Shown: positions 5,351-19,416 of the stretch, one piece after another
How the letters are laid out: every line of letters begins with the position of its first letter
Position numbering within the stretch: the first letter of the stretch is position 1
Origin: Candidatus Saccharimonadota bacterium
GTDB taxonomy: Bacteria > Patescibacteriota > Saccharimonadia > Saccharimonadales > UBA4665
NCBI GenBank assembly: GCA_003153395.1
Contig: PLYP01000005.1
Coordinates: forward strand, 21,701 to 85,700
DNA: 64,000 nt
Direction: 5' to 3'
The notes under the pieces: model-generated
Database searches by the model: none
What the model saw: only the letters and a program-made list of their open reading frames with translations
What the model was told of the DNA's origin: nothing
Program-made: the position numbers and the translations under genes

Positions 5351-6481
5351 CTAACTCTTTTTAACTTTTTCCCAGGGCAAGTCTGCCTTACCAAAGTGGC
5401 CGTAAGCAGAAGTTTGCGAGTAGATTGGTCTTCTTAGATCAAGCGTTTCAATAATCCCTTTTACCGAGGTATCTATTAACTTGTCCTTAAATGCATATAA
5501 ATCATTCTCAGTTACCTTTGCTGTCCCAAAAGTTTCAATAGTCTGCATTAAAGGTCTGGGCTGACCAATAACATAAGCTAGTCCAACTTCGCATTTGTCA
5601 GCAAGTCCGCTAGCTACAATATTCTTGGCAATATATCTAGCTGCATATGCGCCGCTTCGATCTACTTTAGAGGGATCTTTACCGCTAAATGCACCGCCGC
5701 CTACGCGGGCATAGCCTCCGTAAGTATCAACTACAATTTTTCTTCCAGTTAGTCCGGCGTCACTTTCTGGACCGGGGATGTGCCATAGCCCAGTGCCATT
5801 GACCGTAATATTTTCTTCCGACGGCATTACGAATTTAAATGAATCCAATACTGGTTTAAGTATTTTCTCTATTGATTCAGAGCGTACTTTTTCAGCTGAA
5901 GTTTCTTCGTTGTGAGCCATAGCTAGCACTAATTTTTCTACTGCTACAGGCTTACCGCCTTCATATCTTATTGTTACCTGAGCTTTGCCATCCGGTCTCA
6001 ACCAATCTATTTCTTTGCTTTCTCTGGCTGCGTCTATCCTCTTTGTGAGAGCATGAGCTAGAGCGATAGGTAGCGGCATAAGTTCTGGCGTTTCATTAAC
6101 CGCAAACCCGAACATCATGCCCTGGTCTCCAGCGCCGTCCTGATCAACTCCTATGGATATTTCTGGTGATTGCTTGTGAACGTCGTTGCTAAATTCAGAT
6201 TCATCACTAAAACCCCACGCCGGTACTGAATAACCAAGCTGTCGAACTTTTTCACAGGCAACATGCTGGAAATTTATATCGGCATTCGTTTTTATTTCTC
6301 CAAATAAGGCAATTTTGTTAGCACCTGCAACAGTCTCTATAGCAGTATGGCTATTGGGATCCTGGGCCAGTGCTGCATCTACTATGGCGTCACTTATGGC
6401 GTCACATATTTTATCCGGATGACCAGCACAAACTGATTCACTCGTGAAGTAGTTTATAAAGTCTTGTACGTTATCTGACAT
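5351..6481 (-). CDS. metK: S-adenosylmethionine synthetase
   Basis: FTSESVCAGHPDKICDAISDAIVDA, GAGDQGMMFGFA, GGGAFSGKDPSKVDRSGAY signature blocks. Confidence 0.97.
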   Translation of the reverse strand: MSDNVQDFINYFTSESVCAGHPDKICDAISDAIVDAALAQDPNSHTAIETVAGANKIALFGEIKTNADINFQHVACEKVRQLGYSVPAWGFSDESEFSNDVHKQSPEISIGVDQDGAGDQGMMFGFAVNETPELMPLPIALAHALTKRIDAARESKEIDWLRPDGKAQVTIRYEGGKPVAVEKLVLAMAHNEETSAEKVRSESIEKILKPVLDSFKFVMPSEENITVNGTGLWHIPGPESDAGLTGRKIVVDTYGGYARVGGGAFSGKDPSKVDRSGAYAARYIAKNIVASGLADKCEVGLAYVIGQPRPLMQTIETFGTAKVTENDLYAFKDKLIDTSVKGIIETLDLRRPIYSQTSAYGHFGKADLPWEKVKKS

Positions 6482-6489
6482 AAAAATAT

Positions 6490-6642
6490 CCTCTCTGCTT
6501 AATTATTTCTAGCTAGGAAAGGATATAGTCTTAACATATCTTTCCCGCTAAATCGGGCTAGATGGAGCACCTTACTTACTTTAGTGTAGGTTGCTGGCGG
6601 TTCAGCGAGCTAGTTCTCTCCCCGCGCTCTTTATATTTAAAT
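6490..6642 (-). promoter_or_regulatory. SAM-I (S-box) riboswitch in the metK leader
   Basis: The minus-strand leader reads UUAAAUAUAAAGAGCGCGGGGAGAGAACUAGCUCGCUGAACCGCCAGCAACCUACACUAAAGUAAGUAAGGUGCUCCAUCUAGCCCGAUUUAGCGGGAAAGAUAUGUUAA. It contains the AGAG, GAGGGA-like, GCAACC and GGUGC cores, a P4 hairpin CCCG/CGGG, and P1 closure UUAAAUAU/AUAUGUUAA. Downstream, AUAUCCU can pair with the AGGAUAU that contains the SD, directly before a U-run and the ATG. Confidence 0.75.
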
Positions 6643-9753: not shown

Positions 9754-9827
9754 TGGGGATTGGCCAAGCGGTAAGGCACTGGGTTCTGGTCCCAGGATCG
9801 GGGGTTCGAATCCCTCATCCCCAGCCA
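9754..9827 (+). tRNA. tRNA-Gln (anticodon CUG), CCA encoded
   Basis: Cloverleaf folded by hand. Acceptor TGGGGAT/ATCCCCA, D-arm GCC-AAGCGGTAA-GGC, anticodon stem CTGGG/CCCAG with loop TTCTGGT, T-arm GGGGG-TTCGAAT-CCCTC, discriminator G then CCA. TATAAT lies at 9735-9740. Confidence 0.93.
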
Positions 9828-9876: not shown

Positions 9877-10560
9877 ATGCATTTTGATAACCATGAAATA
9901 GCTCTGCTTGATAATTTTCTTATTGATGTTGAGAAATCTTCACTATCTGGACTTTCAACCATGGAAGATTTGTGGATGATTGCTGACGCAGAAAGTAAAA
10001 TGTTGATTGAAGAAATACTTCAACTTAATCCCTTAGATTTCGAATTCAAAGGAAAGAAAATTAAAGAGGAGTCAATTCCAGATGATGTTGTAGCCATCGA
10101 CAATAGCAAATATGCTCAAGACGGAGAATATGCATTATTCAAAAAATCATATCTACCCAGACCTGTTTATGCGGCGTTTAGCAAGATGGGTGAGGAATTT
10201 ACAAAATCTTATCCAAGCCGAGTATTACTAGTTGGATCTGGGTATCGTTCACCTGCAAGTCAAGTAGTGACTTTAGTTTACATACTAGCCAAAATTTATA
10301 ATTTTGATATCAATAAAACTCTTAAGAGGGTAGCCCTTCCACAGTATTCAACGCACAGCTCTGTTAGCGAGACCGCTATTGACGTCATGAACGTTGACGG
10401 TGAACCTAAAGACGAAGACTCGTTGGCTTTTAAAGATAGCGTTGAATATGAATGGCTGAAAGACCATGCAAATAATTTTGATTTTTACGAATCGTATCCA
10501 CCCAATAACCCTGACGGTATTATGTGGGAACCTTGGCATTGGCAATATAAGTCAAATTAG
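9877..10560 (+). CDS. peptidase M15B (VanY-type D-alanyl-D-alanine carboxypeptidase-like)
   Basis: SGYRSPASQ, STHSSVSETAIDV (SxHxxGxAxD-like) and WEPWHWQY C-terminal motifs. No obvious signal peptide. The true start may be an internal Met. Confidence 0.7.
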   Translation: MHFDNHEIALLDNFLIDVEKSSLSGLSTMEDLWMIADAESKMLIEEILQLNPLDFEFKGKKIKEESIPDDVVAIDNSKYAQDGEYALFKKSYLPRPVYAAFSKMGEEFTKSYPSRVLLVGSGYRSPASQVVTLVYILAKIYNFDINKTLKRVALPQYSTHSSVSETAIDVMNVDGEPKDEDSLAFKDSVEYEWLKDHANNFDFYESYPPNNPDGIMWEPWHWQYKSN

Positions 10561-10762
10561 TCCGAAATTCGTTAGACAAGGCCAGCCAAATGCAGCATAA
10601 CAGACGTACGCCCACATACCTTTTCATTTTGTATAGACACCGCGTAAGTAAGCGCATCGCAGATCGTAACGAGATACAAATCATCTGCGCCCTGTGACTA
10701 CGGTCATGATTTGCCAGTAGCTCATTCCCGTATACTAAAATAGTTGGTAAAGGGAATGGATT

Positions 10763-13555
10763 ATGAACTCTGATATACAGCGGCTGGCTCCTGACAAGGT
10801 TTATGGCAAGCTTTCAACGACGACTCAAGGATTAAGCGAATTAGAAGTGGAAACTCGCAGGCAACGCTTTGGTAATAACATAATTGAAGAGTTTGTCCGA
10901 ACCGGATACTACGCCAGGTTGATTGCTAACTTTACGCACATGATGGCTGTCCTACTATGGGCGGGTGGAGCCATAGCATTCATCGCAGGCATGCCGCAAC
11001 TTGGCATAGCTATATGGCTGGTTAATATTATCAACGGTGTATTCAGCTTTTGGCAGGAATATCGCGCGGAAAAAGCCACTCAGACTTTACAGAAATTGCT
11101 TCCGCAAAAGGCCGTAGTTATCCGTAGTGGGGTGGAGCAAAGCGTACTAGCAGACGAACTAGTTCCGGGTGATGTTATCGTACTGTCTCAAGGCGACCAT
11201 ATCTCAGCTGACGCCCGACTGGTAAGTGAGGCCGAGCTGCGGGTTGATCAGTCAATCCTTACAGGCGAGTCTGAGCCTGTACCGAAAGCCTCGTTGGCCA
11301 TTAGCCAAGAAAATTTGACAGCCGTCGAAGTTCCCAACCTGGTTTTTGCAGGAACAAACGTGGTGGCGGGTAATGGTCGGGCCGTGGTCTTTGCCACTGG
11401 CATGGATAGGGAGTTGGGCAAGATAGCCCATTTAACTCAGTCACTACCTCAAGACCTGTCGCCACTTCAAAAAGAAATGCAGACCGCTACAAAAATTATT
11501 ACGATCATGGTAATACTGATAGGCGGCTTTTTCTTCTTACTCGCAATCACTTTTGGACATATTAACTTTACAGACAGCGCAATTTTTACCCTAGGAATGA
11601 TAGTGGCGTTTGTGCCAGAGGGCATGCTACCCACCGTAACCTTAGCCCTGGCTATAAGTAGCCAGCGCATGTCCAAGCGAAATGCCCTAATAAAGAGGCT
11701 GTCATCCGTCGAAACGCTCGGCTGCACTACTGTTATTTGTTCCGATAAGACCGGCACATTAACTAAGAATGAAATGACTGTCCATGACATATGGCTGCCA
11801 CCATCTGCTTCAGCTGGTAAGTCGGGCAACCGACTAAGCGTGACTGGGACCGGTTACGGCGTAGAAGGTGAGATAATGCATCACGGCAAAATCTATTCAC
11901 CGGAGCAGGAAACCGGCCTCCATGAACTTTTGCAAGCTGCCCTGCTATGCAACAACGCACGACTAGTGGCTTCGACTGATGAGAGCGCCCATTGGAGCGT
12001 CTTGGGCGACCCAACGGAGGCAGCCCTGCTAGTGGCGACCCAAAAGGGTGGATTGGATCTACAGTTGGAGCTGGCACATTCGCCGCGCATTGACGAGCTA
12101 CCGTTTGAGTCAAGCCGCAAGCGCATGAGCACCATCCACCAAGTTTATGACGAAGGACAACCTACTTTGGATAGGGTAGCTTTGGCTAAGGGTTCGCCGC
12201 TTGAAACCCTCAGTTTATGTACGAATGTTCTGCAAAACGGTAAGGCGGTGCCGCTTAGTAGTGAACTGCGTGCTAGTATAGTGGCTGCCAACGACCAGTA
12301 TGCCCGGCAGGGGCTGAGGGTGTTGGCCGTGGCCTCCCGAAAGTTGCCAAGAAAGTTAAAGGAAATTTCAGCTGTCAATGTCGAGCAAGACTTAACGTTC
12401 CTAGGGCTGATTGCCATGATGGATCCACCTAGGCCAGAGGTTATTGAAGCGGTCAAGGCCTGCCAGAGTGCCGGAGTCCGGATCATCATGATCACCGGTG
12501 ATTACGGATTAACGGCCGAAAGTATAGCCAAACAGATTGGTATTACCCGCAAAAGGATACGAGTTGTGTCTGGCAGTGAACTTGACTACATGGATGATAA
12601 CAAGTTGCGCAACGTACTTGCCCATGAAGTCATCTTTGCCCGGAGCTCGCCACGGCATAAACTGCGAATTGTCGCTACCCTTCAGGGCCTAGGCCACATA
12701 GTCGCCGTAACCGGTGATGGCGTTAATGATGCTCCGGCACTAAAAAAAGCAGATATTGGTGTGGCGATGGGATGTAAAGGCACAGACGTAGCGAAAGAAG
12801 CCGCAGACATGATATTAACAGATGATAACTTCGCGTCAATTGTAAGTGCTATCGAAGAGGGACGAGCCGTATATGCCAACATAAGGAAGTTTGTCACCTA
12901 CATATTTACGAGCAATGCGCCTGAAGCCGTGCCTTTTATTATCTTCGTATTATCTAGAGCAAGTATTCCCCTAGCGCTTACTGTCATGCAGGTCATCTTC
13001 ATTGACTTAGGCACTGATATGGCCCCTGCCTTAGCCCTCGGCGCTGAACCGCCTGAGCCTGATGTCATGAATAGACCGCCGCGAAACCGTAAAGAGCATA
13101 TTGTTACACGATCCGTACTCATACGGTCTTACGTATATTTAGGGCTAATACAAAGCGGTGCGGCAATGGTTGCCTTCTTCTTTATGTATTGGATGCACGG
13201 CTACCATGGCTTCTTCGGGCTCCCTCACACCGGTAACCTGTACAGATCAGCGACAGCCATGACCCTGGCCACAGTGGTTGCCACTCAAGTTGGCAACCTC
13301 TTCGCTCAACGTACGGAAAGGCTTTCCAGCTTCAAGATAAAAGCCTTCGTCAATCCTTTAATCTGGATAGGAATTGCTGTTGAGCTGACGCTTATCTTTT
13401 CGGTTATCTACATCCCATTTTTCCAGCACATCTTTCAAACAGCTTCACTACCGCCAAGCAGCTGGTTATTCATATTTGCTTGGACGCCGTTGCTGCTGAT
13501 GGCCGATGAGTTAAGAAAATGGATCGTAAGAAGAAGAGCCGCTACCGCTGGCTGA
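10763..13555 (+). CDS. cation-transporting P-type ATPase, type II (SERCA/CtpF-like)
   Basis: TGES, TM4 PEGMLP, phosphorylation site DKTGTLT, TGDGVNDAPALKKADIGVAMG hinge, 10 TM pattern. Confidence 0.93.
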   Translation: MNSDIQRLAPDKVYGKLSTTTQGLSELEVETRRQRFGNNIIEEFVRTGYYARLIANFTHMMAVLLWAGGAIAFIAGMPQLGIAIWLVNIINGVFSFWQEYRAEKATQTLQKLLPQKAVVIRSGVEQSVLADELVPGDVIVLSQGDHISADARLVSEAELRVDQSILTGESEPVPKASLAISQENLTAVEVPNLVFAGTNVVAGNGRAVVFATGMDRELGKIAHLTQSLPQDLSPLQKEMQTATKIITIMVILIGGFFFLLAITFGHINFTDSAIFTLGMIVAFVPEGMLPTVTLALAISSQRMSKRNALIKRLSSVETLGCTTVICSDKTGTLTKNEMTVHDIWLPPSASAGKSGNRLSVTGTGYGVEGEIMHHGKIYSPEQETGLHELLQAALLCNNARLVASTDESAHWSVLGDPTEAALLVATQKGGLDLQLELAHSPRIDELPFESSRKRMSTIHQVYDEGQPTLDRVALAKGSPLETLSLCTNVLQNGKAVPLSSELRASIVAANDQYARQGLRVLAVASRKLPRKLKEISAVNVEQDLTFLGLIAMMDPPRPEVIEAVKACQSAGVRIIMITGDYGLTAESIAKQIGITRKRIRVVSGSELDYMDDNKLRNVLAHEVIFARSSPRHKLRIVATLQGLGHIVAVTGDGVNDAPALKKADIGVAMGCKGTDVAKEAADMILTDDNFASIVSAIEEGRAVYANIRKFVTYIFTSNAPEAVPFIIFVLSRASIPLALTVMQVIFIDLGTDMAPALALGAEPPEPDVMNRPPRNRKEHIVTRSVLIRSYVYLGLIQSGAAMVAFFFMYWMHGYHGFFGLPHTGNLYRSATAMTLATVVATQVGNLFAQRTERLSSFKIKAFVNPLIWIGIAVELTLIFSVIYIPFFQHIFQTASLPPSSWLFIFAWTPLLLMADELRKWIVRRRAATAG

Positions 13556-13601
13556 CAAATAGCTGCATTATATTGTTTCAAAGTGTCTCGTCTCGGGCAC
13601 A

Positions 13602-13623
13602 GTTCTAGGCCGGTATGCTCAGC
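13602..13623 (+). repeat. island intergenic motif, copy 1
   Basis: GTTCTAGGCCGGTATGCTCAGC, 47 nt after the ATPase stop. Confidence 0.6.
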
Positions 13624-13671
13624 CACGATAGATTCGAGCTAAAGTCAAATATGTAGAGTGGTTATCTATTA

Positions 13672-13701
13672 TTGTTCTAGGCCTGGACACTCAGCTATAA
13701 T
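13672..13701 (+). promoter_or_regulatory. candidate sigma-70 promoter for the SDR gene (overlaps island motif copy 2)
   Basis: TTGTTC (13672-13677), an 18-nt spacer, then TATAAT (13696-13701), about 60 nt upstream of the ATG at 13761. Confidence 0.4.
13674..13695 (+). repeat. island intergenic motif, copy 2
   Basis: GTTCTAGGCCTGGACACTCAGC, followed immediately by TATAAT. Confidence 0.55.
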
Positions 13702-13760
13702 AGACTTTAAAGTGACACCGCTTCATAATCATATTAACAAAGTCGCTAGAGGTGCTAATA

Positions 13761-14495
13761 ATGCCAGCAGAGAGCCGTAACCTTAAAGGAAATGTCATTG
13801 CCATTACAGGCGCTAGTTCGGGTATTGGACGGGAGACCGCCAGGCTGTTGGTTGAAGCAGGCGCGAAAGTAGCGCTTGGAGCTCGCCGTCTAGATAGACT
13901 TAATGAGCTAGTTAAAGAGCTTGGAAAAGATAGTGCCGTCGCTATCCAAATGGACGTAACAAGCGCTGATGAAAATAATAAATTTATTACGAAGACAATC
14001 GAGACATTTGGACGCCTAGACAGCGTAGTTGCTAACGCCGGCATTGGATATTATGGAGGGATAACTGACATCTCAGATGGTGAACTGACAAACATGATTG
14101 CCGTAAATTATTCCGGTACGATTTGGACAATTAGAGCTGCGGTTCCGGAATTCCGTAAAACTGGAGCTGGCGATATTGTGATCGTATCCAGTGTTGCTGG
14201 CTTTCGCGGTGGAGCTAATGAAGCTGTTTATGCGGGAACTAAGTTCGCTCAAATCGGGCTAGCAGGCTCCCTCGATCGCGAATTAACTCCTGAAGGCATA
14301 CGAGTTACCGCCATATGTCCTGCAGGTACCAATACCGAGTTCGCTATTGGAGCAGGTCGTACGGAGGGTGATCCAGCTTTGAACGACTACATGAGCCCCG
14401 CAGACGTAGCTTTCCAGATTGTTACTGCACTCCAACAGCCGCGTCGCATCAGGACTTCTGTCTGGATGACTTGGAGTATGGCTCAATTTAGTTAA
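13761..14495 (+). CDS. short-chain dehydrogenase/reductase (SDR)
   Basis: TGASSGIG cofactor motif, NAG, catalytic S...YAGTK. The ATG at 13761 is preceded by AGAGGTG; the ORF track uses a GTG at 13752. Confidence 0.88.
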   Translation: MPAESRNLKGNVIAITGASSGIGRETARLLVEAGAKVALGARRLDRLNELVKELGKDSAVAIQMDVTSADENNKFITKTIETFGRLDSVVANAGIGYYGGITDISDGELTNMIAVNYSGTIWTIRAAVPEFRKTGAGDIVIVSSVAGFRGGANEAVYAGTKFAQIGLAGSLDRELTPEGIRVTAICPAGTNTEFAIGAGRTEGDPALNDYMSPADVAFQIVTALQQPRRIRTSVWMTWSMAQFS

Positions 14496-14540
14496 TACGG
14501 CACATAACTGCCAAAAAGCTATACAAGCAGAATTAAGTGT

Positions 14541-14675
14541 ATGAATAAGTTATGGCATGAGCAACACAAAATGCCAAAGAATACGACACATGAAGAGCGG
14601 CTGAAGTGGCACCTAGAACATCAAAGGCAATGTGGTTGTAGGCCAATTCCAAAAAGTCTGCAAAATGGGGTATAA
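14541..14675 (+). CDS. 44-aa conserved-looking small protein (CxC, His/Lys-rich)
   Basis: ATG...TAA frame read by hand: MNKLWHEQHKMPKNTTHEERLKWHLEHQRQCGCRPIPKSLQNGV. It is below the ORF-track size cut-off. It replaces the unconvincing antisense ORF 14533..14727. Confidence 0.5.
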   Translation: MNKLWHEQHKMPKNTTHEERLKWHLEHQRQCGCRPIPKSLQNGV

Positions 14676-14677
14676 AG

Positions 14678-14698
14678 GTTCCAGACCGGCATGAGTAG
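14678..14698 (+). repeat. island intergenic motif, copy 3
   Basis: GTTCCAGACCGGCATGAGTAG, starting 3 nt after the mini-ORF stop. Confidence 0.5.
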
Positions 14699-14779
14699 TC
14701 AAGGATATGTACGCCATAAAAGTCCACAAGGGATAGGAGTTCAGGATTACGTAGTGTTTTAACTTGCTACAATTAAGGT

Positions 14780-15040
14780 ATGGTCAGATTTATTATTGAC
14801 GTGCGAGAGCCTGAAGAATACTCAGCCGGGCATGTTGCAAACGCACTAAACATACCTCCCTCGGAATTGATGAGTGGGACTGAAAAGCTTAGCGCTATAC
14901 CGAAAGACGCAGAAGTAATTTTGTATTGCAAAACTGGAAGCCGTTCTAACGTATCGAAAAATATTTTGGAGTCCATGGGTTATGTGAACGTTATAAATGG
15001 GATCAACAAAGATCACGTTGCAGCCAAGTACGGTTATTAA
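14780..15040 (+). CDS. single-domain rhodanese-like sulfurtransferase
   Basis: DVREPEEYSAGHVANALNIP and active-site loop CKTGSRS. SD AAGG at 14775-14778. Confidence 0.88.
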   Translation: MVRFIIDVREPEEYSAGHVANALNIPPSELMSGTEKLSAIPKDAEVILYCKTGSRSNVSKNILESMGYVNVINGINKDHVAAKYGY

Positions 15041-15097
15041 CAATCAACGTCTGTAGGATCCAGGCTTTCAGCATCAACCCGAACGAAATCCAAAAAG

Positions 15098-15119
15098 GTT
15101 CCTTACCGGTATGCTCAGC
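15098..15119 (+). repeat. island intergenic motif, copy 4
   Basis: GTTCCTTACCGGTATGCTCAGC, 58 nt after the rhodanese stop. Confidence 0.6.
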
Positions 15120-15176
15120 TAAGAGCACATATTTTACGCCTTATCCACTAAGTATTTGTTAGATTTACAGGTTAGT

Positions 15177-16958
15177 CTAGTTTTTTTTAGTGCGCCAATC
15201 TTTCCATATTAAACGGTGGATTGGAATTAATTTGGGTATGTCTCGAATTCCCGGTATAAATGGCACCAAAAGTAACAACAAGGTTGCAAGACTAGTAAGA
15301 TAAATAGCGATTAAGTCTACATTAGCTGATGTACTGAAACTGGGCACTTGATACCAAAGTGTGTATAGCCACAGCCATGGTTGTCCCGGAAACGAACCGG
15401 TTTCATTCATCACCCCCCATTGAGTTCCAGTCAAATGTTCAGATTTGGCAATTGATGAAAAATAGCTACCATCTTCTATAAATAACAGTGGTTTTGTGTA
15501 ATTGGTGCCGTAAAATGGCTGCTGTGCTAATAAATCAGCATCTATAGCTCCGCTTTGGGCCATCGACAATTCACTAGCAATCATAACCGGTAGAGGACCG
15601 TCGTCAGCCTTCGTTACTGTCGGTATCCCCGACTTAAACGTCACGCTGCTTGTAACTGCATTTAAGTAGGATTGAGCCCAGGCTTGCTGCTGCTTAGATG
15701 TAGCTCGATTATAGTCAGAGAGCGCTTTTGTGAGAGTTGAGTTCCCTAAAGCTACTGTTGAGAGCGGGGATAATACAAACGTTTGAGCTGGGTTTATTGG
15801 TTGGTGAACTCCGGCAAGCAATTGCGGTGAAACTCCGATGCGCTGTACATTTGAAGACCCATTATTATAGGGCGGCCCATACTTAGCTGTTTCACTGGTA
15901 CCTGCTAACTCACTCGCTGCTGTTCCCATAAAATCAGCGGGAGCAATCTTTGACCAAGTTGCAACAGTTACGGGCGGTTCATCTGGGGAAGATAGTAAAC
16001 TAGCAAGGCTAAATACTAGAAATAAAACTATTATTGTTGCGAGTGTTCCTTCTTTTAATATATCGTAGCGTCTTGTTGGCCCTTTCCAGTCTGCGGCTTC
16101 GGCAGCTTTCAGCGCTCGTCTAGCCGCTCGTCCATGCGCTCTTTGAATCGGATGAGAAACTCCCCTTACTCTTACCAATATAATATGTACTGCCACAAAT
16201 AATATTAGAACCAGCGGGATCACGATAATATGCCAAGTGAGTATTTGGCCAAAGTTCATAAGATTAAAAAATGATCCCAAGCCAGTAGCATTAATAGCAT
16301 CTTTACCGTTCGCAGCTATCCATTGTGAATCATAATTCTGCTGAGATAAGTACCCTGTGAAGCATTCTAGAATGGATACCCCAAAAGCTAAAACTCCTGT
16401 CATCCATGTTAATGCTCGTTTGCCTCGCCAAGCTGCCATCCAAAACTTACCCCATAAGTGAATAACCATAAAGGCCATAAATAGCTCGACACTCCATAGG
16501 TGCACACTATTCACAAAGTGCCCTAATGGACTATCGTGCCACCAATTAACCCCACCAATTGCCAGTACCACGCCGGAAGCCATCAACACGCCTAAAGCAG
16601 CTAGAGTTGCAACGCCAAATACATAGATCCATGATGAAACGTAAGCCGGTTGACGATCGGGCAGCAGCTTGCCTGGTGGTAGTATCCTTAGGAAAAAGTT
16701 TCTTACTTTGTTAGTCCACATGCCATTGGGCTTACTGGCAAATGGCCCATGATTGACGTCTTGGTTGTCAGATTCAGTATCTTTATCAGCCTCATTATCT
16801 CGACTTTTTGGAAACGGCAATAGAATTGCCAGTCCAAAAATAACTACCATAGTAGCTATAATTATCAAATTTGCTATAGATATCGTGAAAATTGACCAAT
16901 GGATGTAATGCTGAGGGTGATTTAAGTTTACAAGAGAAGCGATTGTTTCGATATTCAT
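15177..16958 (-). CDS. cytochrome b (bc/b6f-type N-terminal domain)-like membrane protein with a large divergent C-terminal region
   Basis: Helix B H-x13-H (HLWSVELFMAFMVIH), then GKFWMAAWRGKRALTWMTG (compare FxxGxFRxPRExxW). Helix D H-x14-H (HIIVIPLVLILFVAVH). A further TM helix, then about 230 aa of non-TM sequence and C-terminal TM helices. Confidence 0.75.
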   Translation of the reverse strand: MNIETIASLVNLNHPQHYIHWSIFTISIANLIIIATMVVIFGLAILLPFPKSRDNEADKDTESDNQDVNHGPFASKPNGMWTNKVRNFFLRILPPGKLLPDRQPAYVSSWIYVFGVATLAALGVLMASGVVLAIGGVNWWHDSPLGHFVNSVHLWSVELFMAFMVIHLWGKFWMAAWRGKRALTWMTGVLAFGVSILECFTGYLSQQNYDSQWIAANGKDAINATGLGSFFNLMNFGQILTWHIIVIPLVLILFVAVHIILVRVRGVSHPIQRAHGRAARRALKAAEAADWKGPTRRYDILKEGTLATIIVLFLVFSLASLLSSPDEPPVTVATWSKIAPADFMGTAASELAGTSETAKYGPPYNNGSSNVQRIGVSPQLLAGVHQPINPAQTFVLSPLSTVALGNSTLTKALSDYNRATSKQQQAWAQSYLNAVTSSVTFKSGIPTVTKADDGPLPVMIASELSMAQSGAIDADLLAQQPFYGTNYTKPLLFIEDGSYFSSIAKSEHLTGTQWGVMNETGSFPGQPWLWLYTLWYQVPSFSTSANVDLIAIYLTSLATLLLLLVPFIPGIRDIPKLIPIHRLIWKDWRTKKN

Positions 16959-17034
16959 ATCCTATATTCTACCATTCGAACTATCATTTTAGTGTGATCT
17001 CTGTCAATGTATTTATGCTAATCAGCTCAGAACG

Positions 17035-17598
17035 CTATTTTGTGTCAGTTAATTGTTGTCGGCCATATTTGTTTACTACCTTGCAGAGCAAAATACCGAA
17101 TGCAAGTTGAAAAATTACCTGTCCTTGGAGTAGTAGGCCATGTGGTTTTGGCAAGTAATAAAATGAGATAAGTCCGCCGCATAATTCAATGCAAACCAAG
17201 CCAAGATTTTGCCAGCTAAAGTCTATTTTTACCAATAGCCAGATGGACAATACTAGCTGGAATACAAATAGGGTTGTTCCGATAGCAGTATGGATTGGAT
17301 TCACTAATGTGTGAGGAGTTAATACTAATCCTGTGAGCAATAATGCCATGACTCGTAAACCGTAAGCAACGTAGTTATGAAGCTTATTATTATTGACTAA
17401 TACCCTGGCAGCCTCCCAATAAAAGTAAGCGTTCAGAAAAAAGGCCGCAGAATATGGAATAATCGTATTTTTAAAGCTACCAAAATAGCTAAGTCCGTCA
17501 TTAGCAGAGAGACCGGCTGGACGGATAAGTATACATATCAGCAGTAATGTGAACGCTGCAATTAGACCGTAAGATATGCTACGTGCTGCTTGAGTCAT
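17035..17598 (-). CDS. polytopic membrane protein, unknown function (upstream of the cytochrome b-like gene)
   Basis: 187 aa with about 6 hydrophobic helices, same strand, 76 nt from the next gene. Confidence 0.5.
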   Translation of the reverse strand: MTQAARSISYGLIAAFTLLLICILIRPAGLSANDGLSYFGSFKNTIIPYSAAFFLNAYFYWEAARVLVNNNKLHNYVAYGLRVMALLLTGLVLTPHTLVNPIHTAIGTTLFVFQLVLSIWLLVKIDFSWQNLGLVCIELCGGLISFYYLPKPHGLLLQGQVIFQLAFGILLCKVVNKYGRQQLTDTK

Positions 17599-17620
17599 GT
17601 TAATTATAGCCCTAGTCTAT

Positions 17621-17634
17621 GGTATACCCTCAGC
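17621..17634 (+). repeat. island intergenic motif, copy 5 (3' half)
   Basis: GGTATACCCTCAGC followed by TGTAAT. It shares GGTAT..CTCAGC with copies 1 and 4. Confidence 0.4.
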
Positions 17635-17762
17635 TGTAATAGCGTTAAGTAGACATGTGTGTGATGCGGATCATCGTCTTTTGGAGACATTGCTTACAGA
17701 CAGTCATTTTGCATCAGTACATACTGGGTAATGTCAACTTAATATGCATGGGAAGGAGGCCT

Positions 17763-18315: not shown

Positions 18316-18744
18316 ATGCAGTTAGTACGATACAATCCGCTCCGTGATTTACAAAGGATGGAACGGGATCTAGATAAGTTTTGGGAGGATGACTGGGGTT
18401 TATTGCCTTCGCTCGCTGACTCGACGACTATGGATCTTTACGAAGAAGATGGCAAATTAGTAGCCGAGTTGAGTCTGCCGAACTTCACGAAGGATGAGGT
18501 AAAGGTAACCACCGATGAAGGGGTGCTGGAAGTTTCAGCCGAACACAGCGAGAAAGAAGAGGGCAAAGGCAAGCGACGGTATTACTTCCGAGAAAGCAGT
18601 AACCGATATTTGCGCCGTGTCAAATTGCCAGAAGGCGTGAGAATCGACAATACCGAGGCTGTATTCAAAGACGGGGTATTGAGGGTAGCGATGCCGACTA
18701 CTACCTCTCCCAAGATTAAAGCCAAAACTGTACCTATTAAGTAA
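18316..18744 (+). CDS. Hsp20/alpha-crystallin family small heat-shock protein
   Basis: Alpha-crystallin domain pattern: DLYEEDGKLVAELSLPNFTKDEVKV...VLEVSAEH...F.RRVKLPEGV...A.FKDGVLRVAMP. Confidence 0.92.
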   Translation: MQLVRYNPLRDLQRMERDLDKFWEDDWGLLPSLADSTTMDLYEEDGKLVAELSLPNFTKDEVKVTTDEGVLEVSAEHSEKEEGKGKRRYYFRESSNRYLRRVKLPEGVRIDNTEAVFKDGVLRVAMPTTTSPKIKAKTVPIK

Positions 18745-18747
18745 ACC

Positions 18748-19416
18748 GTGATGATCTACCGCAACCGCCAACAGGCAGGCAAAGAACTGGCTAAAGCGCT
18801 CATACGCTATAAGGGAGAAGCCGCCGTTGTACTGGCCTTGCCTCGCGGCGGAATAGTCTTAGGTGCAGAGGTTGCGAAAAGTCTTCGAGTACCACTGGGT
18901 CTCGTCTTAGTCCGCAAGATCGGACACCCATCGTATGCCGAATATGCAGTCGGTGCTATAGCTGAGGATGAAACACCGATTTACAATCAGTCTGAAATCG
19001 CTAATATCGACAAAACCTGGCTTAAGCATGCAGAGACAGCTGCCAGAGAACTTATTGTGCGGCGACGGGAACAGTACTATGGGAAAGACTTCGTAGCACC
19101 CAGTTTGTTAAACAAGACCGCGATCATTGTCGATGACGGTATTGCTACCGGACTAACTATGCAGGCTGCAGTGAAGGCTGTCAGAAACAAGCATTCCAAA
19201 CAAGTGATAGTGGCCGTACCAGTTGCCTCTCAGGAAAGTGTCGACGCGTTAAAAGATAGTGTTGATCAGCTCATAGTACTAGACAATCCTGAAAACTTTT
19301 TAGGCGCCGTCGGCGCTCACTACCAGGAATTTGATCAAGTTAACGATGAAGTAGTGGGAAGACTGCTTCGGGAGGTACATGATGACATGCTCCAAAACAC
19401 TGCCACGCATCGATAA
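18748..19416 (+). CDS. phosphoribosyltransferase-family protein (stand-alone type I PRT domain)
   Basis: PRPP-binding loop AIIVDDGIATGLTMQAA. It starts 3 nt after the Hsp20 stop, so it is probably co-transcribed. Confidence 0.8.
   Translation: MMIYRNRQQAGKELAKALIRYKGEAAVVLALPRGGIVLGAEVAKSLRVPLGLVLVRKIGHPSYAEYAVGAIAEDETPIYNQSEIANIDKTWLKHAETAARELIVRRREQYYGKDFVAPSLLNKTAIIVDDGIATGLTMQAAVKAVRNKHSKQVIVAVPVASQESVDALKDSVDQLIVLDNPENFLGAVGAHYQEFDQVNDEVVGRLLREVHDDMLQNTATHR

Follow-up and report, generated by a model that had tools for sequence, protein, structure and literature searches.

A tRNA-Gln-like motif as the probable boundary of small gene cassettes in an array of Candidatus Saccharibacteria

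In a 64-kb stretch of DNA from a Candidatus Saccharimonadota bacterium (contig PLYP01000005.1, positions 21,701 to 85,700; this whole stretch is called the window here), a short motif recurs on the plus strand between the genes of an island that lies directly downstream of a tRNA-Gln gene. We found that this motif, which we call the core, ends in CCA and resembles the 3' end of tRNA-Gln, and that gene segments common to otherwise unrelated contigs end at its CCA. We consider it probable that the core is the conserved half of an attachment (att)-type recombination site together with the crossover segment, located at the 3' end of small cassettes that form a tRNA-Gln-anchored array in Candidatus Saccharibacteria. 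The original prediction, made from the letters of the window, had offered the binding site of a regulator, a promoter element of a donor lineage and a recombination or cassette-boundary scar as explanations of the motif, and the last of these is the one favoured by the junctions, the polarity and the tRNA-Gln linkage described below. Three features had escaped it: that the motif resembles the 3' end of tRNA-Gln, that a CCA trails it, and that a tRNA-Gln gene lies 3.8 kb further upstream.

When we scanned metagenomes with the pattern GTTCYNGRCNGGYATGCTCAG, at least 120 stretches matched; the numbers of low-GC and high-GC matches given below refer to those listed from that scan, and low-GC metagenome contigs were taken as Saccharibacteria-like. 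The 68 distinct low-GC matches have unrelated flanks but share a G at position –1 and a CCA at +21 to +23, and conservation drops to background right after this CCA. The CCA follows the motif in 45 of the 68 low-GC matches as compared to 1 of the 45 high-GC matches. The core is 24–26 nucleotides (nt) long (GGTTCYAGACCGGYATGCTCAGCCA) and begins GTTC[T/C][A/T]G. Aligned with the 3' end of the window's tRNA-Gln (GGTTCGAATCCCTCATCCCCAGCCA), it is identical at 18 of 25 positions, and the match spans the T-loop, the 3' acceptor strand, the discriminator G and the CCA (tRNA positions ~52–76). The repeats in the window have the length of the tRNA-Gln 3' segment and this degree of identity to it, yet they are a distinct conserved sequence, and the same core is common to genomes whose tRNA-Gln acceptor stems differ. 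ARAGORN found no tRNA overlapping any of the 68 low-GC cores, Rfam placed no family over the core in 11 loci (E ≤ 1), and in the window the Rfam gathering score was reached solely by tRNA and an S-adenosylmethionine (SAM) riboswitch. Folding of the core gave no significant hairpin (mean z = –0.7). The genes found in the cassettes are diverse accessory genes (SOD, MsrA, Nramp, heliorhodopsin, ArsP, methyltransferases and others). We rejected the high-GC matches as chance or coding matches that are unrelated to the core; about 15 high-GC contigs (L096, L117, L121, L138, L140, L150, L161 and similar ones) match GTTCCCGACCGGCATGCTCAG inside one conserved coding gene, which we attribute to chance.

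In the window, four copies of the core are present on the plus strand, starting at 13602, 13674, 14678 and 15098; each is 24 nt long, from GTTC to YYA, which is the length of the tRNA-Gln 3' segment at 9804–9827 (Table 1). With a degenerate consensus and at most 3 mismatches, we found 3 copies in the window as compared to 0.03 expected from shuffles. We also scored the window with profiles made solely from independent metagenome copies, and three of the four copies (1, 3 and 4) were individually significant: copy 1 at the E-value given in Table 1, copy 3 at 14676–14693 (E = 1.8e-4) and copy 4 at 15096–15121 (E = 8.5e-5), which together with its upstream block (15072–15120) reaches E = 8.6e-11. 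Copy 2 is degenerate, and its support is that the 94-nt unit 13602–13695 is conserved in three other contigs (L139, L128 and L099). This search found no further significant copies on either strand of the 64 kb, in agreement with the original remark that the motif was not seen outside the island. That prediction had counted five plus-strand copies; the four full ones hold, and the fifth, a half copy at 17621–17634, has CTCAGCTRTAATAG in common with copy 2 and the adjoining sequence, which is suggestive, and did not reach significance in the profile search of the window. A candidate sixth, indel-ridden copy at 10556–10589 was likewise not detected by the profile search of the window; it directly follows the VanY stop codon, at a step in GC content from 37% (VanY) to 50% (ATPase). 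The four confirmed copies thus occupy one strand within a 1.5-kb stretch of the 64 kb, or ~7 kb with the two tentative ones. The core is neither palindromic nor dispersed on both strands, as repetitive extragenic palindromes or miniature inverted-repeat transposable elements would be, and a profile search found no core in 22 kb of another Saccharibacteria contig.

To place the core in relation to tRNA genes and to neighbouring genes, we compared strands across the loci. The low-GC motif loci contain 15 tRNA genes, and each of them, like the one in the window, is tRNA-Gln. In 15 of 16 sequences (14 of 15 loci and the window), the cores are found downstream of this gene and on its strand, at distances of 0.2–10 kb and with up to 5 copies. 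In every sequence with at least two cores (16 of 16; 15 non-redundant loci and the window) the cores have a single orientation, so that 21 adjacent core pairs are on the same strand and none is on opposite strands; core spacing ranges from 420 to 7713 nt with a median near 1.1 kb. In contrast, 41 genes upstream of a core share its strand and 23 oppose it, and among the downstream genes 35 share it and 38 oppose it. The strand of the core thus tracks tRNA-Gln and the array and not the genes, which argues against a promoter, an operator, a terminator or a 3' untranslated region and for a site that acts at the level of DNA. In L171, a partial 5' copy of tRNA-Gln (251–295, 93% identical to window positions 9758–9802) is located on the same strand, 2.2 kb downstream of the full tRNA-Gln.

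The same cassettes occur in differing contexts, and comparison of contigs gives the positions of their ends. Segments that are common to otherwise unrelated contigs end at the CCA of a core, and cassettes in unrelated contigs start right after the CAGCCA of a tRNA, of a core or of a foreign partial tRNA-Gln. The insertion junctions coincide with the att-like repeat at 0 to +4 nt from the CCA (offsets 0/0 for L114 and L142, 0/0 for L180 and L202, which have a 450-bp cassette in common, and +2/+2 and +4/+4 for L097). Three contigs have a cassette of ~470 bp that in each of them ends at the CCA of its own core; it is preceded directly by a tRNA-Gln 3' fragment (...GTTCGAATCCCCCATCCCCAGCCA) in L142, by a core in L097 and by CTCAGCCA in L114. 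In L094 and L168, the tRNA-Gln genes are 100% identical and the second cassettes are 91% identical; the first cassettes are unrelated to each other, and each starts exactly past the CCA and ends in its own core.

In 14 loci, we found a second conserved element, a 29-nt block (ATRAATTCGAACTTWAGTCAAAKATGTAG) that we call the L-end. It is always located 2 nt past a site ending in CAGCCA, which is a core, a degenerate core or a partial tRNA-Gln 3' end. In L110, L126, L142 and L099, the site before the L-end is a partial tRNA-Gln 3' end without the body of a tRNA, and in L110 this fragment differs from the locus's own tRNA-Gln. One contig from a peat metagenome run has tRNA-Gln followed 2 nt later by the L-end block. 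Core and L-end combine into an imperfect dyad with CAGCC at its centre (ATGCT-CAGCC-AGCAT, GTTCGAAT...ATTCGAAC), the layout expected of a recombinase core site, and a similar dyad (TGCTC-AGCTAA-GAGCA) is found at the copy 4 junction (15112–15127).

We propose a mechanism on this basis. A cassette would consist of a 5' end (sometimes ATRAATTCGAACTTWAGTCAAAKATGTAG), usually one gene with a short promoter, and the ~26-nt core. A recombinase would bring the core of the cassette together with either the 3' end of tRNA-Gln or a core already present in a resident cassette, and strands would be exchanged within the shared CAGCCA. Exchange at this position would leave the tRNA intact and place the new cassette directly past the CCA, with its core as the next boundary, and repeated insertion would produce a co-oriented array. 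The layout of the arrays, their polarity, their tie to tRNA-Gln, the exact junctions and the recurrence of the same cassettes in different surroundings are observed, whereas enzymatic site-specific recombination, a crossover inside CAGCCA and present-day activity of the system are inferred. The enzyme would presumably come from a gene at another place in the genome or from a helper element.

Several results weigh against site-specific cassette exchange. The tyrosine-recombinase signature is absent from 1179 open reading frames (ORFs) of the motif loci and from the window, no integrase family recurs among 215 ORFs of the motif loci, and, among the protein families visible to our searches, neither the island nor the window has a recombinase-like gene (53 ORFs of the window, with NCBIfam run on the island's ORFs of unknown function). 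The L-end block is present in a minority of cassettes, and some cores are located more than 7 kb from any tRNA (L081). The right-hand breakpoint between L094 and L168 lies 43–74 nt beyond the core instead of at the core. Among the assembled contigs of four peat metagenome runs, we found no excised circle or empty-site joint; peat contigs that match the tRNA alone diverge on both sides, which is weak evidence. The one candidate, and the sole recombinase seen near any core, is a 185-amino-acid resolvase-type serine recombinase in L211 (932–1489, plus strand; PF00239, E = 3e-47), which lies ~100 nt beyond the last core of the array and is convergent with it, in a contig context like that of L147.

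In one alternative, the cores are 'portable homology' and cassettes are swapped by natural transformation and RecA-dependent or homology-facilitated recombination between repeats, with no dedicated site-specific recombinase, or else the copies are inert scars of long-dead elements that targeted tRNA-Gln. Natural competence has been reported for Saccharibacteria, junctions at the edges of a conserved repeat are also expected from RecA-dependent exchange, and both the missing recombinase near the arrays and the breakpoint off the core in L094 and L168 count in its favour. We nevertheless regard this alternative as unlikely. The 24-nt core is near-invariant across contigs of 33–50% GC and has a sharp edge at the CCA, for which a sequence-specific constraint is needed. 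The identity between tRNA-Gln and core (18 of 25 positions, with a 6-nt identical stretch) is too little for RecA, yet cassettes begin exactly past the CCA of the tRNA, and the dyad that the core forms with the L-end at a fixed 2-nt spacing resembles a protein binding site.

Another explanation is that the core acts in RNA, as a tRNA-like 3' tag (T-loop and CCA) for processing, stability or termination, and that cassettes end at cores since transcripts end there. The core does end in CCA and mimics the 3' half of a tRNA, many copies lie 0–60 nt past a stop codon, a hairpin like that of an intrinsic terminator often comes next, and a -10 box of the TGATACAAT type 15–40 nt upstream in several loci suggests that the core is probably transcribed. 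In the window, the gaps between stop codon and copy are 46 nt for copy 1, 2 nt for copy 3 and 57 nt for copy 4, which bears out the distances of 3–58 nt given for these copies earlier. However, the core has no partner for an acceptor or T stem, no Rfam family and no significant folding, and the upstream gene is in the opposite orientation in 23 of 64 cases while the strand follows tRNA-Gln and the array. An RNA tag also leaves unexplained why cassettes start past the CCA of a tRNA and why tRNA-Gln fragments are found in core positions. We therefore consider a role in RNA to be quite improbable.

The idea that the motif is a promoter element or an operator for a regulator of the island genes is highly improbable. 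It arose from TATAAT and TGTAAT, which follow copies 2 and 5 as had been described, and a YANNAT hexamer follows many copies elsewhere. The hexamers are real, but there is no -35 element at the right spacing, and a scan with consensus promoters does not call these sites; the conserved promoter of the SDR gene (TAGACT-17-CATAAT, 13701–13729) instead lies downstream of copy 2. Copy 4 and many other copies lie between convergent genes, where a promoter would have nothing to transcribe, and the gene downstream is opposite in 38 of 73 cases, with no fixed position or orientation, so that the independence of the core strand from neighbouring genes speaks against both the regulator site and the promoter element. 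An origin in a donor lineage also did not hold: the best relatives of the island ATPase in the genome collection are ~60% identical and belong to Anaerolineae and other phyla, and 1.43 Mb around the closest of these relatives contains no significant copy. We assign the motif instead to a cassette system of the recipient lineage itself. We rejected a coding reading on the minus strand, (M)AEH[AT]G[LQK]E preceded by an NTG codon, because the frame differs in copy 3, there is no ribosome-binding site and it overlaps the ends of plus-strand genes; judged from the sequence, a sigma-54 or extracytoplasmic function sigma factor promoter, a hammerhead ribozyme, domain V of a group II intron, a functional tRNA or tmRNA end and an uptake sequence do not fit either.

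Reading the core as a cassette boundary gives an account of the island. The window has ~38% GC, whereas the region from ~10.6 to 20.6 kb, directly downstream of tRNA-Gln, has 44–50% GC, and the modules of the island differ among themselves in GC content. Its genes encode VanY, a P-type ATPase, an SDR protein, a 44-amino-acid ORF, a rhodanese, a cytochrome-b-like protein, Hsp20 and a phosphoribosyltransferase. The island is probably a cassette array with boundaries at 9827, 13625, 13697, 14701 and 15121, and perhaps at 10589 and 17636. We propose that the last 24 nt of tRNA-Gln (9804–9827, GTTCGAATCCCTCATCCCCAGCCA) are the primary attachment site that heads the array. VanY, the P-type ATPase, SDR, rhodanese and possibly other genes would then be separate cassettes of differing composition and not one transferred block, which would explain the mosaic island.

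Table 1. Coordinates of the tRNA-Gln gene, the core copies and the proposed cassettes in the window.
Feature	Position	Strand	Remarks
tRNA-Gln(CTG) gene	9754..9827	+	Rfam, ARAGORN and direct reading
Candidate decayed core with upstream block, TTAGTCCGAAATTCGTTAGACAAGGCCAGCCA	10556..10589	+	found by eye; ends CAGCCA; tentative
Core copy 1, GTTCTAGGCCGGTATGCTCAGCCA	13602..13625	+	end of the putative P-type ATPase cassette; E = 9e-8 (metagenome-built profile)
L-end block (putative cassette 5' end), ATAGATTCGAGCTAAAGTCAAATATGTAG	13628..13656	+	2 nt past the CCA of copy 1
Core copy 2, degenerate, GTTCTAGGCCTGGACACTCAGCTA	13674..13697	+	ends a putative 72-nt cargo-less mini-cassette, 13626–13697
Putative SDR cassette	13698..14701	+	promoter 13701–13729, SDR 13761–14495, 44-amino-acid ORF 14541–14675, copy 3
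Core copy 3, GTTCCAGACCGGCATGAGTAGTCA	14678..14701	+	end of the putative SDR cassette
Putative rhodanese cassette	14702..15121	+	rhodanese 14780–15040, upstream block CCCGAACGAAATCCAAAAAG 15078–15097, copy 4
Core copy 4	15098..15121	+	end of the putative rhodanese cassette
Candidate fifth copy with indels, TAGTCTATGGTATACCCTCAGCTG	17613..17636	+	followed by TAATAG as at copy 2; not significant

The SDR gene allows the proposed boundaries to be compared with other contigs. Its orthologues P0004, P0007, P0008 and P0013 have 82–95% protein identity and unrelated gene neighbourhoods, and contigs with SDR relatives carry the motif as well. In L081, L085 and L087, DNA homology begins at 13693–13698, the 3' end of copy 2, and in one of these three contexts it extends through copy 3. 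Within the SDR cassette, an 8-nt direct repeat (CCAAAAAG at 14511–14518 and 14649–14656) flanks a 138-bp segment with the 44-amino-acid ORF; the SDR cassettes of L081 and L087 have one copy of CCAAAAAG and lack the segment, which points to an indel inside the cassette.

The closest source-named relatives of TypA are 81–84% identical and mostly come from Candidatus Saccharibacteria or Saccharimonadales, and the island is also present in peat and soil metagenomes, with ~99% identity in four peat runs. We found no exact protein records for the SDR, rhodanese and TypA proteins of the window and no match to 13400–15300 in a plasmid collection, and synteny based on TypA, by which we sought the distal end of the array, was not conserved. 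Upstream of tRNA-Gln are genes for an NTPase, a histidine kinase and metK (5351–6481, minus strand), the last of which is preceded by the SAM (S-box) riboswitch (6533–6639, minus strand). L202 has the same arrangement of SAM riboswitch and metK and an identical tRNA-Gln, and its cassettes past the tRNA are entirely different. The island combines the P-type cation ATPase (10763–13555) with Hsp20 (18316–18744) and the phosphoribosyltransferase (18748–19416), a set that may resemble members of the mycobacterial dormancy (DosR) regulon (ctpF, hspX and Rv0571c).

Many cores also have a tandem repeat, TGTCTCATTTGTCTCATT, 40–95 nt upstream on the same strand (L102, L108, L151, L158, L144, L136, L095, L135, L157, L205 and L192, and possibly the window at 13576–13589, TGTCTCGTCTCGGG). 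It is often followed by an extended -10 box of the TGATACAAT type and sometimes by an inverted ATGAGACA. This repeat could be an outward promoter or operator or an arm-type protein binding site. In viral contigs, the core pattern gave nothing but high-GC chance matches, the L-end block gave no match, and the TGTCTCATTTGTCTCATT repeat gave mostly low-complexity matches and one phage contig (L229). L229 is a phage-like IMG/VR contig with a terminase, two DNA methylases and a ribonucleotide reductase, assembled as a concatemer with a 9117-bp period; ahead of its NUDIX gene lie a TGTCTCATT repeat and a tRNA-like core of variant sequence (GGTTCCAGACCTAGGTGCTCCGCCA), and we recognised no integrase in it.

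In streptococci, elements that lack an integrase and are mobilized in cis (cis-mobilizable elements, CIMEs) accumulate by accretion. The arrays described here resemble most closely two known kinds of system, tRNA-seeded additive islands with partial-tRNA repeats and the cassette arrays of integrons. Additive islands, which site-specific integrative elements seed at tRNA or tmRNA genes, include the tycheposon islands of Prochlorococcus, which contain partial tRNA repeats (bioRxiv 10.1101/2020.12.28.424599), and the tandem islands at the tmRNA gene ssrA of Dehalococcoides (PMC3146451). As in such islands, a full-length tRNA is proximal, co-oriented repeats like the tRNA 3' end stand between acquired modules, entry is beside the tRNA, many modules lack an integrase, and true partial tRNA-Gln fragments are found at equivalent positions. 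In contrast to them, the repeat here is a conserved sequence of its own (18/25) and not a copy of the resident tRNA, the units are 0.07–4 kb long and mostly hold one gene as compared to elements of 5–50 kb, and no integrase-bearing element was seen in the roughly 70 loci.

With integrons, the arrays share a fixed primary site, co-oriented and mostly single-gene cassettes that each have a 3' recombination site, diverse adaptive cargo and the presence of the same cassette in different arrays. They differ in that no IntI-type tyrosine recombinase is located by the primary site, which here is the end of a tRNA gene. The core is 24–26 nt long and conserved in sequence, whereas attC is an imperfect palindrome of 55–140 nt with RYYYAAC/GTTRRRY boxes, and the junction is near the centre of the dyad (CAGCC) as compared to the outer GTT in integrons. 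Many cassettes here also bring a promoter with them, and roughly one in three upstream genes is reversed. Xer-dependent pdif modules and integrative mobile elements exploiting Xer (IMEX) lack an integrase, have short conserved recombination sites and use a recombinase encoded elsewhere. The cassettes may be comparable to these in being small integrase-less modules bounded by short conserved sites; however, the core does not have the 11-6-11 layout of XerC/XerD sites, the sites are in one orientation and do not alternate, and they are tied to tRNA-Gln and not to dif. In the literature, we found no description of such arrays for Saccharibacteria.

Little is understood of how accessory genes enter and leave the very small genomes of Saccharibacteria and other members of the candidate phyla radiation (CPR). 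A conserved, searchable 26-nt boundary tied to tRNA-Gln can be used to delimit acquired cassettes in metagenome-assembled genomes, to follow their traffic between strains and to hunt for the recombinase. More tentatively, Saccharibacteria, and perhaps other CPR bacteria, may capture genes in an integron-like manner, with the tRNA-Gln 3' end as entry site, a ~26-nt mimic and partner block on the cassettes, and a separately encoded recombinase, of a kind so far not connected with arrays of this sort, that would shuffle single genes between genomes. If the platform is active and site-specific, it would represent a second way of capturing genes in integron fashion, one that relies on tRNA mimicry, and it would offer genetic tools a natural docking site in those few Saccharibacteria for which culture and transformation are possible. 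Such a gene-capture platform would, if real, be one of the main ways in which these epibionts with minimal genomes obtain genes for stress response and transport.

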